Notes under the pieces: model-generated
What the model was told of the DNA's origin: nothing
Database searches by the model: none
What the model saw: the letters and a program-made list of their open reading frames with translations, nothing else
Position numbers and translations under genes: made by a program
From: Escherichia coli
GTDB lineage: Bacteria > Pseudomonadota > Gammaproteobacteria > Enterobacterales > Enterobacteriaceae
Length of the DNA: 64,000 bases
Reading direction: 5' to 3' (one strand)
Assembly: GCF_003018115.1 (NCBI RefSeq)
Contig: NZ_CP027457.1
Shown: positions 50,565 to 57,641 of the stretch, in pieces
How positions within the stretch are numbered: position 1 is the stretch's first letter
Layout: every line of letters starts with the position of its first letter

Positions 50565-51695
50565 TCAAATGACCAGTTTTTTCCATTCCTTACCGCGTGC
50601 GTCGTTGTAAATATCGGTCATTTTTTGATTCGAATGGCCCAGCAAAATTTTGGTATCAATTCCCTGTTCTCTGAACAATCGTTCTGATAAAGATCTCTGC
50701 TCATGGAAAGAGGGTGGGGTGCCATTAGCACGCCAGTTGTAATCCACAGAATCCCGGGCTTTTTTAAATGCAACGGTTAACGTTGCTGGCTTAACCATCC
50801 CGCCGCGCTTAGCTGTCCCTTTAGCATGATGGTGGTGCAATAGCCACGGACTAAGAACGCAATCGCGACAGGATGACACCACATCATCCAGGGTGAGATT
50901 TAATTTATCGCAACGCAGAGCCAGAGGGATGGCAATCCGGGTTCCTGTTTTTTGCTGTTCGACATGAAGATAACCATCCCTGATATCCGAAAATTTCATT
51001 TTGCAAATATCTGAAAGGCGCTGGCCTGTCATCAGTGCCAGCAGCATACCACGCTGTAAAAAGTAACCATCCTTTTCCGCTGCATTATAAATCATCATCC
51101 ACTCATCAAAGGTCAGTCGTTGCCGTGATATCCGTACCTGTGGTTTTTTTGCCGATTCTGCAGGGTTAAAGCCTGGCGGGACATCGCCCGTTTGCTGGGC
51201 CTCCCGGAAAACATCAATCAGTACTTTCCTGAAAATTTGTCCCATTCTGTTATGTCCTTTTGCCTTGTAATCTTCCAGCACCGATACCACATCTTTTACG
51301 GTTATGGCATCTAAAGGTCTGGTACCAAAACGTTCATCAAATACCCTGAGAGGGGATGCTTTCTGTTTCAGTGTGTTGAGTTTGATCTCTCCGTTTTCAT
51401 ATCTTTCCTGTTGAATTTTTCGGTAACTATTCAGAAAAACCGAAACGGTTGATGAACCACCGGTATCACGAATAATTTTCTCCTGCAGAGTGAGCATTTG
51501 TTCCATTTGTTGCCTGGCAAGACGGCTGTTCGCTTCTGCTGCAATAGCTTCTGCCTGTTTCTGGTCAATACTGCCGAGCCCGTGATTTTTTCCTGTTATG
51601 GGATGCCTGTAACGCCAGTAAACTTTGTTATTTCTTTTGTCAAAATACGGAGATAATCCCGGAACTTCAGTTTTATATTTTCGTGGGCGCGCCAT
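50565..51695 (-). CDS. int: phage integrase (tyrosine recombinase, lambda Int-like)
   Basis: 376-aa ORF; N-terminal arm-binding-like region, C-terminal catalytic region with R...HxxR...Y pattern (HEQRSLSERL...LGHSNQKMTDIY). Confidence 0.9.
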   Translation of the reverse strand: MARPRKYKTEVPGLSPYFDKRNNKVYWRYRHPITGKNHGLGSIDQKQAEAIAAEANSRLARQQMEQMLTLQEKIIRDTGGSSTVSVFLNSYRKIQQERYENGEIKLNTLKQKASPLRVFDERFGTRPLDAITVKDVVSVLEDYKAKGHNRMGQIFRKVLIDVFREAQQTGDVPPGFNPAESAKKPQVRISRQRLTFDEWMMIYNAAEKDGYFLQRGMLLALMTGQRLSDICKMKFSDIRDGYLHVEQQKTGTRIAIPLALRCDKLNLTLDDVVSSCRDCVLSPWLLHHHHAKGTAKRGGMVKPATLTVAFKKARDSVDYNWRANGTPPSFHEQRSLSERLFREQGIDTKILLGHSNQKMTDIYNDARGKEWKKLVI

Positions 51696-51921
51696 CTTCC
51701 AGTATCCTCTTCAAAGCAGGGTGATCTGTGGCGATCACTTCCGGCTTGTTTACCATTCCGACAAAGCGAGCTCGAGGATCCACTCGCCAGTGTCTTCCAA
51801 CTTTTTTGGGGAGAGGAAATATCATTCCGGCTTTAGCGTATTTACTTAACGTGCCCGGAGTCGGGACCGGGTCACTGAATTCCTCTTTTGCCCACTCAGT
51901 GAGAAGAATAAGTCTTGCCAT
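51673..51921 (-). CDS. xis: excisionase (Xis-like)
   Basis: 82-aa ORF overlapping int start by 23 nt; lambda-Xis-like winged helix (EWAKEE...IFPLPKKVGRHWRV). Confidence 0.8.
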   Translation of the reverse strand: MARLILLTEWAKEEFSDPVPTPGTLSKYAKAGMIFPLPKKVGRHWRVDPRARFVGMVNKPEVIATDHPALKRILEDGAPTKI

Positions 51922-51985: not shown

Positions 51986-54457
51986 TTAAAAATCAGCCTG
52001 ACTCGGGATCAGTTTTTGCCAGATGGCTGAAACGTATTTTGCCTGGTAACGCGCATCGTGCAGCGCGTTATGGCGTTCACCTTCGAATGGAATAGTCGTT
52101 CTTGCGTCGAAATCCATCACCAGTCCCAGAGCAACCATCGTTCTTACATCGCGATCATTGGTGTAACGCCACGGGCAGGGGATCCCCTGCCGTTCATATG
52201 AACGGCGTAAAATCACGTTGTCGAAAGTTGCACCGTTACCCCAGACCTGAACAAAAAATTCACCGGAGTTTTCGTCGATAAATTCCCGGAATTGCAGCAG
52301 TGCATCATCCAACGGGATTTCATCGGTCAGAATGGCGGATTGTGCTTCGCGTGACTGTTTCAGCCACCACTTAATGGTGCCCCGATCGATGACCCCGCCT
52401 GCGGTTTCCAGATCGATAGTTTTGCTGAATTCTGGCCCCATCTCTCCGGTTGCCGGATCAAAAAACTTACCGGCTATAGCGTTTATTGGCGCATCAGGAT
52501 TTTTTCCCATTGTTTCAAGGTCAATCATCAGATGGTGCCACAACCTGCTGGTGGATGTGATTTCATGATGACCGTTCACTTTAATTAAGGGATTTGCTGT
52601 CTCGCCAGTTTTATTATCGCTGGCGTGATACTGATCGCTGATAGTGTTCTCCTTGTGCAGATGTTCAGTGCCTTCCATTTCCTCCGGATCATTTTCCTGA
52701 GCTTCAGCCTGATTCTCTTCATCGAATGTTTCCTGGTAGGTTGCGTTCCCCATCACCGCACCACAGTCAGGACAGTTGCCGCCACCGGTCTGACCGCATG
52801 CGGTGCAAACTTTTTCCGGTTCTTGTTGCACTTCTGGTTCAGGCAGTTTCGTTTCTGGCTCGTTTTGTAACGCATTTGGACTGTTTTGTTCCGCTTTCTG
52901 GTCGTTTTGTTCCGATTCGGGCTGGTTCTGGTTCACAGAATCGCGGGTTTCAATCCCCTTAACCCATTTCGGATCATTCGGGTCGCTAATCCCTTCAACA
53001 AATTCACCACGTGATGCAGCAAGCAATTTATCGGTGTCAGGCTGGCTGATATTGGCTGCCTGCATAATTTTGTTTACTTCGTCAGCGGTAACTTTTACCG
53101 GCTCTGGTTGTTCTGAATCTTCTGCGGTATCTGTATTTTGCTGTAAGCCCGTATATGTGCCATTTTTTCGGGCAAAATATTCTTCTTTTGAGATTTCGGT
53201 ACCACCGGCAGCCAGCGCCTTGTCCAGGCCAGAAAGTTTGTTTGCCCTGCCGTATTTTTCCCCGTCCTTATCGGTAAAGACGAAATAAAACGGTCCTTCA
53301 CGCTCTACAGATGGTTCAGCTTCCACCAGGATTTCATTTTTTTGAGAATTGGATTCCGCCGTCTCCACTGGATCAGTTTGTGCTGCTGACGACAGGATAG
53401 CATCAGCAGAGCTCTGGTCTGTTTCTTCATGTTCAAACACGCCCTTTGTCGTCAGGTATTCGCTGATGTATTTGTTCAGTGCAACGGGATCTTTGTGAAT
53501 GTCGATCGGGCGCTCACGAACAAGGCCAAAAATAGTCTGACGGTCATAGCGAAGCGCATCAGGCTGTTTGCGCATTGATGCAGAGATACGCTTCCAGTCT
53601 TCGCGATCCTTGTCGATAACCTCATTTTTAGCCCAGCGATGGATGGTACCGTCAATGTTTCCGGCATCAATATCACCAGGCCAGAGAGCGTAAGCCAGCT
53701 CTTCATCCAGGGTTTTCCATGTCTGCTTGTATTCGCGACGAATGGCAGTAGTGACAGGGTTGATTTTTGCTGCTGAGTTTTCAGTGTGCTGTTGGTTGAC
53801 TCTGGCGCGGGCCAGCTCAACAACAGAAGTATGTTTCCCGGTTTCTTTTCGTTCTGCTTCGCGACGTTTTTTCCAGGTGCGCATCTCTGCCTGAATTTCT
53901 GGCCATTTGGCACCAGGCTTACATTTATGCTTAACCCACCCGATGGCATACAGCTTAAGCTCCGGATACATGGCGTTAACTTCTGGCATTTTCATCAAAG
54001 CTTCCACGATATGTCCGTCGAAGGTTGCCATGTCTTCCTGCAACAATTCCTGTGCGCTAATCACCATATCAACGGTGATGTTTTCACATGTATCGAACTT
54101 AACCATGACAGCGTTCTGTACTTCAGGGGCCAGCTTGTCAAAAGTGACGTTCATCGGATCTGATTCAGGTTCGACCGGGACAAAGGAAGCAGACGCCTCA
54201 TCCCAGCGGTTTTCCAGCATATATTCAGCATCCCAGGAGTCGAGGGCTGGGCGGGGTGTACCGGGTTTATCCTCACAGACAAGAAATTTATAAGCGCAGT
54301 CCTGAGCAGCCGGATAATGTTCAAGGAATTGCCAGTGAAATTTTGCGCGGGCGCGACGTTCATCACCGGCTTCAATGGCTGTGGCCACAGCAACAGCGCC
54401 CTCGTTTTTTATTGCCTGTTCGTCAGGAATGGCGGCGCAAATAAATATTTTACTCAT
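51986..54457 (-). CDS. large phage protein with C-terminal DEDDh (DnaQ-like) 3'-5' exonuclease domain and CxxC-x10-CxxC zinc ribbon
   Basis: 823-aa ORF; Exo I MIDLETMG, Exo II NGATFDNVIL, Exo III HNALHDARY at C-terminus; central acidic low-complexity region; CTACGQTGGGNCPDCG. Confidence 0.8.
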   Translation of the reverse strand: MSKIFICAAIPDEQAIKNEGAVAVATAIEAGDERRARAKFHWQFLEHYPAAQDCAYKFLVCEDKPGTPRPALDSWDAEYMLENRWDEASASFVPVEPESDPMNVTFDKLAPEVQNAVMVKFDTCENITVDMVISAQELLQEDMATFDGHIVEALMKMPEVNAMYPELKLYAIGWVKHKCKPGAKWPEIQAEMRTWKKRREAERKETGKHTSVVELARARVNQQHTENSAAKINPVTTAIRREYKQTWKTLDEELAYALWPGDIDAGNIDGTIHRWAKNEVIDKDREDWKRISASMRKQPDALRYDRQTIFGLVRERPIDIHKDPVALNKYISEYLTTKGVFEHEETDQSSADAILSSAAQTDPVETAESNSQKNEILVEAEPSVEREGPFYFVFTDKDGEKYGRANKLSGLDKALAAGGTEISKEEYFARKNGTYTGLQQNTDTAEDSEQPEPVKVTADEVNKIMQAANISQPDTDKLLAASRGEFVEGISDPNDPKWVKGIETRDSVNQNQPESEQNDQKAEQNSPNALQNEPETKLPEPEVQQEPEKVCTACGQTGGGNCPDCGAVMGNATYQETFDEENQAEAQENDPEEMEGTEHLHKENTISDQYHASDNKTGETANPLIKVNGHHEITSTSRLWHHLMIDLETMGKNPDAPINAIAGKFFDPATGEMGPEFSKTIDLETAGGVIDRGTIKWWLKQSREAQSAILTDEIPLDDALLQFREFIDENSGEFFVQVWGNGATFDNVILRRSYERQGIPCPWRYTNDRDVRTMVALGLVMDFDARTTIPFEGERHNALHDARYQAKYVSAIWQKLIPSQADF

Positions 54458-54552: not shown

Positions 54553-54741
54553 TTATCCAGCCGGTATTTCGTTATTCAGGTACAGCGATACTTTGTTTAA
54601 CGGGAGACATTCACCGGAAATTTTTTGCTCGTCTCTTGCCTGATGGCAGGATTCTTTACTGGCATAAATTCCGGTAATCACTTTCTGTGGCTCACCTGTT
54701 ATCAGAAAAACCGTCATCATCAGTGTAAACGCTGAACTCAC
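54553..54741 (-). CDS. hypothetical small protein with N-terminal signal-like hydrophobic segment
   Basis: 62-aa ORF MSSAFTLMMTVFLITG...; start overlaps upstream ORF stop (ATGA). Confidence 0.45.
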   Translation of the reverse strand: MSSAFTLMMTVFLITGEPQKVITGIYASKESCHQARDEQKISGECLPLNKVSLYLNNEIPAG

Positions 54742-54926
54742 TGCTGCCCTCCGAAAATGCCAAGTTCAAGAAGGGCAATTCTGGAGAGTATGGAATTATC
54801 ATTGAGAAGATAAGGCTCATATTTTCTCATCCTGATGGCGTCCTCAGTAAACTCCCGGTTACTGAGCAGAATACCAATATTAAAACACCCTTCAGACGTA
54901 TTAACGTTTGGTAGTGACGTTTCCAT
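54738..54926 (-). CDS. hypothetical small phage protein
   Basis: 62-aa ORF translationally coupled to 54553..54741. Confidence 0.4.
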   Translation of the reverse strand: METSLPNVNTSEGCFNIGILLSNREFTEDAIRMRKYEPYLLNDNSILSRIALLELGIFGGQQ

Positions 54927-55101
54927 TATCGCGTCCTCAACAATGAATTTTGTGATGTGGTGCCTGGTGCCTCCAGGTGACGTTAACCAGTTAACAATTA
55001 ACGCCGGATTGTTAGTTGATGTCTGTTACGCCAGTAAAAGACCGCTTGTTTTAACTGTTCCGCGTGCGCTTAGCCGCATTCACCGCATCACAAAATACAC
55101 T

Positions 55102-55131
55102 TTAAAAATGGCGGATATCCATTTCCGCCGA
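55102..55131 (-). terminator. putative leftward-strand terminator within prophage early-left region
   Basis: ggcgga..tccgcc / aaatgg..ccattt inverted repeats with adjacent A-run on plus (T-run on minus). Confidence 0.4.
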
Positions 55132-55475
55132 ATCACCAGAAAAGTGATAACAGAGGTTGTTGTGGCGGTGTTGTCACTCAGGCGCATGGTCAACCTGACA
55201 ACCCGGTGCATTTTCTGGAGCAATGGAGGAAGCCCCAGCCATACTTACCGCCGCGCCATTTCGCGGATTGCCACAACCGGAAGCGCACGATCGAATTAAA
55301 TTTAACGACAAGCCTTATATTCTCGCCGTGCGCTTTCGTGTTATGCCCTGACTTTTCAGGGATATGTTCTTTCAGCAAACTGTCAGTGCCGGATTCTTAT
55401 CCGTGTCCGGCGCACGACCACACGTGACAGCGTGTTGGTCTCCATTTTTAACCCAGAACCTCTATGGAGGATAAA

Positions 55476-55778
55476 ATGCACTCTAAATCAAATCGATATT
55501 ATGTTCATGTGCAGTTATTTGAAGCAACAATGGAACAGGAGAAAAAGTTCGAGACTCTGATGCCAAATTTTAAATACTCCAGGATGATTAATGAAGGTGA
55601 CGTTGAATATAAATTGTTGCCAGGGGCATACGTTATTCAGTCAACGCTCAATTCGAATCAAATACTTGAACAAACCTTTTCTGTTGCTAATTCAGTTGGT
55701 GTTAATGCTCACATTTTTGTTTGCCCTTATGATGAAAGTGCAACCCTTTTGCCTTGTGCTGATTTTGGCACTTACTAA
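55476..55778 (+). CDS. hypothetical AT-rich accessory (moron-like) protein
   Basis: ORF 55464..55778; second ATG at 55476 has strong SD (tggaggataaaATG); 100 aa; opposite orientation to the surrounding leftward operon. Confidence 0.55.
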   Translation: MHSKSNRYYVHVQLFEATMEQEKKFETLMPNFKYSRMINEGDVEYKLLPGAYVIQSTLNSNQILEQTFSVANSVGVNAHIFVCPYDESATLLPCADFGTY

Positions 55779-56849: not shown

Positions 56850-56900
56850 CCCTTGACTTGAGATTCCTTGAGTGATTACTATTGAGAAAACTCAAGCCTG
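56850..56900. promoter_or_regulatory. divergent immunity promoter/operator region (OR)
   Basis: TTGACT -35-like element, cttgag repeats and palindrome ttgag-aaaa-ctcaa (56883..56896) between repressor and cro-like gene. Confidence 0.55.
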
Positions 56901-56908
56901 GAGGGGTG

Positions 56909-57136
56909 ATGTTTAAATCAGACGTAATTAATTTTTATGGGACGAAAGCCAAAGTAGCGAAAGCTGCTGGTGTTGATCCATCTGCTGTTTCTCAATGGGG
57001 GAAACTGGTCCCTGAAGGTCGCGCGATGCGCCTGCAAGAGGCATCCGGCGGGGAGCTTCAGTATGACCCCAAAGTTTATGACGAATATCGTAAGACGAAG
57101 CGGGCGGGGCGGTTGAACAATGAAAATCACCCTTGA
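56909..57136 (+). CDS. Cro/DicC-like regulator
   Basis: ORF 56882..57136, likely starting at MFKSDVINFYG; divergent from repressor; DicC-like (YGTKAKVAKAAGV...VPEGRAMRLQEASGGELQYDPKVYDEY). Confidence 0.75.
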   Translation: MFKSDVINFYGTKAKVAKAAGVDPSAVSQWGKLVPEGRAMRLQEASGGELQYDPKVYDEYRKTKRAGRLNNENHP

Positions 57137-57641
57137 GCAGGCACGCGATGCCCTGGATGCCTGGATAAGCCGACCAGGAATGACGCAGGAGCAGGCGACG
57201 ATATTAATTACTGAAGCCTTCTGGGCTCTACAGGAACGCCCGAACATCGATGTTCAGCGTGTCACGCTTGATGATGGCGGGGTTGATCAGCGTGCGCTTG
57301 GCGTTAACCGGGTGAAGATATTCGAACGCTGGAAGGCTATCGACACCAGGGATAAGCGTGAAAAATTCACGGCGCTGATTCCGGCAATTATGGAGGCTAT
57401 CCGGATTAGTGATTTCAGGTTGTACCGCGAAATTACTGACGGAAAAAGCATTACGTACATGATTGCCGGGTTAAACAAAGAATATGGCGATGTGGTGGAG
57501 TCCGGGCTGCTTTTTGCAGATCCAGCTGTTGTGGAACGTGAGACAGACGAGCTTATAGAAAAAGCAATCGCTTTCAAGCGTGCCTATCGTCACCAGTACC
57601 AACAAAAAGCCGGATGGAATTATGAGCCTTCTTTTTGCTGA
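57120..57641 (+). CDS. YdaT-like protein (cII-position, Rac YdaT family)
   Basis: 173-aa ORF in the position of Rac ydaT; shares the ...ALIPAIMEAI... segment as recalled. Confidence 0.6.
   Translation: MKITLEQARDALDAWISRPGMTQEQATILITEAFWALQERPNIDVQRVTLDDGGVDQRALGVNRVKIFERWKAIDTRDKREKFTALIPAIMEAIRISDFRLYREITDGKSITYMIAGLNKEYGDVVESGLLFADPAVVERETDELIEKAIAFKRAYRHQYQQKAGWNYEPSFC

Follow-up and report, generated by a model that had tools for sequence, protein, structure and literature searches.

What kind of enzyme is encoded by a large gene beside the excisionase of an Escherichia coli prophage, and what might it do where no annealase gene accompanies it? The gene lies in a 64,000-nt stretch of contig NZ_CP027457.1 (assembly GCF_003018115.1), hereafter called the window, and consists of an 823-codon open reading frame (ORF) with an ATG start at 51986..54457 on the minus strand. 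An earlier sequence-only reading of the window had described its product as a DEDDh exonuclease fused to a zinc ribbon, and had suggested either an atypical recombination exonuclease or a defence-related nuclease. We found that the protein, a member of the YdfE family, is best regarded as a RecE variant in which the nuclease has been swapped for one of opposite polarity.

Relationship of the YdfE-family exonuclease to RecE

The modules of the protein are given below with their amino acid (aa) positions, the confidence of an AlphaFold2 (AF2) model (predicted local distance difference test, pLDDT) and the ratio of nonsynonymous to synonymous substitution rates (dN/dS).

51986..54457, minus strand: whole coding sequence, an intact YdfE-family prophage exonuclease of 823 aa
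53843..54457, minus strand: N-terminal folded module (YdfE_N, aa 1-205), made up of an alpha/beta and a helical domain
53438..53725, minus strand: helical module in common with the RecE N-terminal region (aa 245-340), from BLASTP, hhalign and pLDDT >90
53303..53425, minus strand: disordered, fast-evolving linker (aa 345-385), pLDDT <50, dN/dS 0.7-2.3
53153..53302, minus strand: small beta-hairpin/helix module (GPFY...GRANK, aa 386-435), pLDDT ~95, dN/dS 0.04-0.09
52583..53035, minus strand: linker region like Rac RecE aa 455-591 (aa 475-625), ending at the domain-swap junction
52964..52993, minus strand: conserved linear motif GISDPNDPKW (aa 489-498), a putative partner-binding site
52763..52807, minus strand: four-cysteine zinc ribbon CTACGQTGGGNCPDC (aa 551-565), CxxC-x7-CxxC
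52538..52762, minus strand: acidic low-complexity linker before the nuclease (aa 566-640), dN/dS 0.33-0.5
52019..52537, minus strand: DEDDh 3'-5' exonuclease domain (PF16473, aa 641-813), DexA/Rv2179c-like

In a BLASTP comparison with RecE of K-12 (exodeoxyribonuclease VIII of the Rac prophage), query residues 262-625 aligned to RecE 278-591 with an E-value of 3e-61, and hhalign with a profile of 37 relatives matched query 171-432 to RecE 186-446 at 99.6% probability, giving a region of homology to the non-catalytic N-terminal part of RecE that spans aa ~171-625. Similarity is by far highest over aa 475-625, which include both GISDPNDPKW (at aa 469 of RecE) and the zinc ribbon, and where the DNA (window 52584-53033) is 76% identical to Rac recE. 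The nuclease domain of RecE has been described as starting at residue 564 or 606 and running to 866, preceded by a large N-terminal region without known function (PMC11611040); the similarity that we observed stops at RecE aa 591, inside this 564-606 zone. Downstream of that point the protein matched PF16473 (Rv2179c-like 3'-5' exoribonuclease) over the whole model (1-177 of 177, E 5.3e-61), the sole domain found in our local Pfam search. Because the similarity to RecE ends at aa 591 and PF16473 takes over, we read the 823-aa YdfE as a RecE-type scaffold with an exchanged catalytic head.

Canonical RecE was considered and rejected: the NCBIfam RecE equivalog model (NF007259) gave 268 bits (cut-off 1269) and covered profile positions 446-602 of 877 only, and the protein has no PD-(D/E)XK domain and no recT. 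The two proteins have in common the non-catalytic region, the GISDPNDPKW motif, the CxxC-x7-CxxC ribbon and a lambdoid early-left operon slot between kil/dicB-type genes and xis-int. They differ in that RecE ends in its own PD-(D/E)XK 5'-3' double-stranded DNA exonuclease, in place of which YdfE has the DEDDh domain, and in that RecE is followed by its recT partner; K-12 RecE, for its part, has no counterpart of the first ~170 aa of YdfE or of the aa 386-435 module.

The active site of the DEDDh domain is intact. Its motifs lie at aa 644-651 (MIDLETMG), 743-747 (ATFDN) and 796-801 (HNALHD), and the catalytic pentad D646, E648, D746, H796 and D801 matches the catalytic residues of DexA of phage T4. 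In a MAFFT alignment of T4 DexA with six divergent relatives, D7, E9, H186 and D191 of DexA corresponded to D646, E648, H796 and D801, with D746 falling within the aligned ATFD/SFD Exo II motif, and the pentad was kept in six of the seven divergent fusion relatives that cover these positions. The sole significant sequence relative in the PDB was 8KEL/8KEN, which is T4 DexA (PMC12153337), a 3'-5' DNA exonuclease (T4 record annotation; PMC12153337). YdfE and DexA thus belong to the PF16473-type DEDDh fold family with D, E, D, H and D aligned, but DexA is a stand-alone protein of 227 aa with extra loops and no scaffold, and the relationship is distant (phmmer E 3e-7 for the domain alone). Rv2179c of Mycobacterium tuberculosis, the founder of PF16473, belongs to the same Pfam family, whose whole model is matched here; it differs in being a small stand-alone exoribonuclease of a cellular genome, according to the Pfam description.

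Upstream of this domain, an AF2 model of aa 1-450, built from a 37-sequence alignment (mean pLDDT 86.4), contained confident folds at aa 1-205, 245-340 and 388-432, separated or followed by disordered segments at aa 226-236, 345-381 and 440-450. In this model the aa 386-435 module is formed by strands at 390-396 and 399-405 and a helix at 408-416. The four cysteines of the ribbon are C551, C554, C562 and C565, and the linker behind it is acidic, with 12 D/E and no K/R in aa 561-600. These results bear out much of the sequence-only reading, namely the 823-aa ORF with its DnaQ-like motifs and the acidic linker, and the ribbon proved real as to its cysteines, with the caveat that their spacing is CxxC-x7-CxxC and not x10 as had been stated. 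The comparison of Pfam and RecE hidden Markov models proposed there came out in favour of a DnaQ-like domain (PF16473, E 5e-61), with no full-length match to RecE and with all catalytic residues kept. The view that the N-terminal ~550 aa are free of recognisable motifs did not survive, since YdfE_N/YdfE_C and the RecE N-terminal region were matched there.

The gene is already catalogued. The family phrog_2082 (PHROG 2082, 'exonuclease') covers residues 1-823 of 823 at 1757 bits, precomputed tables assign PF27430 (YdfE_N) and PF27432 (YdfE_C) to the identical protein, and that protein occurs on at least 1000 public contigs under the RefSeq labels 'exonuclease' or '3'-5' exoribonuclease'. Residues 1-256 are 90% identical to the product of ydfE (b1577), a pseudogene in the Qin prophage of K-12 that has ydfA/B/C, dicF, dicB and ydfD upstream, as here, but that is cut by IS2 after ~256 codons and so is without the RecE-like linker and nuclease domain; the 823-aa protein is in effect the undamaged form of K-12 ydfE. 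Pairwise dN/dS among four E. coli and phage copies was 0.17-0.26 for the whole gene and 0.04-0.19 in every folded module, including ~0.1 in aa 245-340 and 0.10-0.19 in the DEDDh domain, rising to 0.33-0.5 in the RecE-like linker and ~0.7-2.3 in the disordered aa 346-385. All folded modules are under purifying selection, and because their dN/dS is 0.04-0.19 we regard the gene as real and maintained over its full length. A decaying pseudogene was rejected on the basis of dN/dS, of the thousands of intact copies (the identical gene is present in many E. coli genomes) and of its presence in a complete phage genome.

The scaffold family, its C-terminal domains and their prevalence

A search of 1.84 billion proteins with the N-terminal 440 aa matched the representatives of 189 clusters (at 50% identity), and because only these matched we consider the scaffold a narrow family. 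Its long members fall into three C-terminal classes: those with DEDDh heads, those with RecE-type PD-(D/E)XK heads, and a third class of 16 representatives whose C-terminal ~230 aa were unmatched in Pfam and PDB sequence searches. This third class is the same scaffold fused to a Rad52-fold annealase, and it is found in other Enterobacterales. The scaffold is therefore tied to recombination proteins, and its C-terminal head is interchangeable among relatives.

The linkers of these proteins, otherwise variable, carry short conserved motifs. GISDPNDPKW was present in 13 representatives distributed across the DEDDh, PD-(D/E)XK and annealase-fusion classes, and a second motif, GxGxFS[IV][DE]GL, was likewise present in all three classes and absent from both the 823-aa YdfE and K-12 RecE. 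The occurrence of GISDPxDPKW and GxGxFS[IV][DE]GL in such linkers suggests a common binding partner. The GPFY motif of the aa 386-435 module was found in 30 of 150 representatives, among relatives of all three classes, and not in K-12 RecE. The zinc ribbon, which we had considered as a family-defining feature, was rejected as such: among the 150 representatives it is lineage-specific, being limited to YdfE's own cluster and K-12 RecE (aa 517).

To estimate prevalence, we searched 5426 complete E. coli genomes with the 575-nt DNA of the DEDDh domain at a coverage of at least 80%. The domain was found in 4039 genomes (74%), at 8021 places and with up to seven per genome, whereas the DNA of RecE's nuclease domain occurred in 1730 genomes (32%), at 1827 places. 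The DEDDh form is thus the commoner form in E. coli. The earlier suggestion of an atypical recombination exonuclease holds insofar as the protein is a relative of RecE with a DEDDh head, and fails in the word atypical.

Position in the prophage and the missing annealase

On its flank the window carries E. coli chromosomal genes (kch, yciI, tonB, yciA/B/C, ompW), beyond which a lambdoid prophage adjoins ompW, and a locus in E. coli O178:H19 matched at 99.5% identity over 20.5 kb. The immediate neighbours of the exonuclease gene are these:

54738-54926, minus strand: dicB, upstream, from the RefSeq annotation of the 99.5% identical locus (L001) and phrog_1251/phrog_1092 matches
54553-54741, minus strand: DUF1482/ydfD-like gene, upstream, from the L001 annotation, phrog_1251/phrog_1092 matches and the gene order of K-12 Qin
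51673-51921, minus strand: excisionase, downstream, followed by the integrase
50565-51695, minus strand: integrase, downstream, followed by ompW (the attachment site)

The full order runs from a DicA-like repressor through ydfA-type genes, dicB, DUF1482/ydfD and the exonuclease to the excisionase and integrase. It also occurs in K-12 Qin and in phages Tritos and vB_EcoM-606R7, the complete genome of Tritos carrying an 87% identical copy of the gene. E. coli prophages integrated at mtfA/tRNA-Ser, yccA and ompW keep this order, and divergent DEDDh-type relatives in other assemblies and genera showed equivalent layouts. No promoter-like site was found directly upstream of the exonuclease gene, and the simplest reading makes it the last one in a repressor-controlled early-left operon. 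This fixed last-gene slot, kept at several attachment sites, does not fit the cargo of an integrase-proximal hotspot that the sequence-only reading had envisaged.

That reading was right that no annealase gene is adjacent. No RecT, Bet, Erf or Sak gene adjoins the exonuclease, which has dicB and DUF1482 on one side and is followed directly by xis and int on the other; no annealase was present in 11 related contexts, and none is annotated in the complete Tritos genome or in the whole ~52 kb prophage of a near-identical strain, where rusA is the only other recombination-related gene. By comparison, recT lies directly downstream of K-12 recE, of a divergent PD-(D/E)XK-type relative, and of all E. 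coli recE matches listed.

Several further features of the prophage were observed. In the near-identical strain, a partial copy of ompW (L020 2104-2229; NZ_CP024289.1 1627103-1627228) marks where the ~52 kb prophage stops on its far side, which agrees with integration at the 3' end of ompW and duplication of that end. Within the early-left operon, in the interval between the ydfA-like genes and dicB, a 104-aa ORF (55464-55778, plus strand; phrog_8894) lies on the opposite strand, with a promoter-like site at 55448-55477 (plus strand) overlapping its start. Around window positions ~55100-55420 (minus strand), the region is 79.5% identical to the ydfC-dicF-dicB-ydfD-ydfE segment of K-12 Qin, and a terminator-like hairpin occurs at 55129-55110 (minus strand). 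DicF was not called at the Rfam gathering score in the window, and a diverged DicF may be present near 55100-55420.

On the repressor's right-hand side lie a regulator of the Cro/CI family and a 'toxin' protein of the YdaT family (57120-57641 and 56882-57136, plus strand), as in Rac and Qin, and because of these two genes we place the prophage in the Rac/Qin group of lambdoid phages and not in the lambda group. Rfam matches at 60495-60679 and 61388-61562 (plus strand) comprised isrK next to a C4 antisense RNA, and a sok antitoxin RNA adjoining the prophage hokD; nearby, the L001 annotation has a RelE/ParE-family toxin with a helix-turn-helix gene beside it.

Proposed function and its alternatives

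We infer function here from the architecture, active site, selection, context and distribution of the gene. The reading that we hold, with roughly even confidence, is that the protein would be an early-lytic nuclease that processes DNA ends in the 3'-5' direction, is targeted by its RecE-type scaffold and works independently of a phage annealase. Upon induction or infection, the repressor-controlled early-left promoter would drive the gene along with dicB and ydfD. The scaffold would bring the DEDDh head to a partner or DNA structure that is also targeted by RecE and the annealase fusions, and the head would then remove nucleotides from DNA 3' ends by two-metal chemistry, so that DNA ends or recombination and replication intermediates would be processed during lytic growth with reliance on host functions and not on a phage single-strand annealing protein. 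A wider proposal, which we put forward tentatively and consider rather doubtful, is that the scaffold is a recruitment platform of enterobacterial lambdoid phages that directs three interchangeable heads to one host target through linker motifs such as GISDPxDPKW; the DEDDh form would then represent an undescribed annealase-independent 3'-end pathway, acting either for or against recombination.

Several points weigh against the end-processing nuclease. A 3'-5' exonuclease destroys the 3' tails used in RecA and annealase pathways, and a positive role in recombination is therefore not self-evident. The Pfam family takes its name from an exoribonuclease, and the substrate could be RNA. Structural searches with the scaffold gave no informative match, and for this reason its targeting role is a guess; the co-transcription with dicB would follow from gene order and the comparison with K-12 Qin. 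One metagenomic DEDDh-type relative, P0232 (L007 6001-8259), has lysine for the Exo I glutamate and alanine for the Exo II aspartate, and may be a catalytically dead copy that keeps the scaffold; this two-site substitution suggests that the scaffold may serve a purpose for which catalysis is not needed. We found no functional study of the ydfE family or of this fusion in the literature searched. The gene is a catalogued but functionally uncharacterised one and not a new kind of system. Of most use among the new observations are the junction at which the heads are swapped, the strict lack of an annealase, the sister class of annealase fusions and the linker motifs that the classes have in common.

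The closest precedent for a different role is EcD ('HREX', HAK9828821.1), a stand-alone DexA homologue of E. coli that, when plasmid-borne, is reported to degrade T4 DNA and to protect against T4, and bacterial DexA homologues come mostly from Escherichia (PMC12153337). By analogy, YdfE could be a superinfection-exclusion or anti-phage nuclease that degrades incoming phage DNA, for example the hydroxymethylcytosine DNA of T-even phages, and so protects the lysogen. Both are DexA-like DEDDh exonucleases of bacterial or prophage origin in E. coli, DexA is the only PDB sequence relative of the domain, and the gene is very widespread, with as many as seven copies in a genome. Protection against some phages has been reported for DicB, the product of the upstream gene. 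We nevertheless consider this role unlikely. No known defence system was recognised, PADLOC-DB 2.0 giving no model match (best E 0.024 over 23 residues), and at the end of a repressor-controlled early-left operon, as gene order and K-12 Qin indicate, the gene would be expected to be silent in a lysogen. The scaffold is held in common with recombination proteins, not with defence proteins, whereas EcD stands alone, and a stand-alone relative shares just 38% identity with the DEDDh domain of YdfE. Judging by its cloning primers, EcD also begins with MIDTET and ends in ...TIPETY, whereas YdfE has MIDLET at aa 644 and ends in ...SQADF; in IMG/VR the reverse EcD primer had no matches and the forward primer matched 26 loci, none of them ending in ...TIPETY.

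Nor are the residues linked to EcD activity clearly present in YdfE. Recognition of 5-hydroxymethylcytosine has been ascribed to W152 and D169 of DexA, and D90, through which DexA forms tetramers, is replaced in EcD by A78 (PMC12153337). YdfE, unlike EcD, keeps the D90 equivalent as D718 in a low-identity, moderately reliable alignment, and in the low-identity MAFFT alignment W152 falls on T766 (with Y765 and W763 nearby) and D169 on A785 (with D782 and D784 nearby). With these residues not clearly conserved and no PADLOC match, the defence-related nuclease of the sequence-only reading found little footing beyond the 2025 paper on EcD.

Two further alternatives take the domain's relatives at their word. 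One follows the role put forward for T4 DexA, a scavenging nuclease that would reduce host or competitor DNA to mononucleotides to feed phage DNA synthesis and have no part in recombination; homology to DexA, for which scavenging of host DNA is a well-characterised role (PMC12153337; T4 annotation), and the early lytic expression that we would expect are in its favour. Yet a conserved 640-aa scaffold, in common with RecE and annealase fusions, is needless for bulk scavenging, for which stand-alone DexA-like proteins of ~190-230 aa suffice in other phages. Degradation of the host chromosome is not known from temperate lambdoid phages, which also counts against scavenging, and we regard it as quite improbable. 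The other alternative is an RNA exonuclease trimming RNA 3' ends, for instance those of the ydfABC-dicF-dicB transcript of its own operon or of host RNAs. PF16473 was defined by the exoribonuclease Rv2179c, RefSeq often uses the name '3'-5' exoribonuclease', and the operon carries the small RNA DicF in K-12 Qin and phage Tritos. Against these stand the match of the domain to the DNA exonuclease DexA with no significant ribonuclease chain in the PDB, the occurrence of the scaffold in common with DNA recombination proteins only, and the lack of a DicF call at the Rfam gathering score in the window; an RNA substrate therefore strikes us as a slim prospect.

RecE/RecT is a standard recombineering tool, and the N-terminal region of RecE emerges here as a reusable module, which in E. 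coli prophages is joined to a 3'-5' DEDDh domain about four times as often as to the RecE nuclease. The interchangeable heads offer a concrete route to learning what the scaffold binds, and prompt one to ask how the gene, among the most widespread in E. coli prophages and present several times over in pathogenic strains, functions during induction. Should it influence recombination between lambdoid prophages resident in one cell, the gene would bear on the reshuffling of Shiga-toxin and other prophages; should it instead act as EcD does, it would count as a phage-exclusion factor of very common occurrence.

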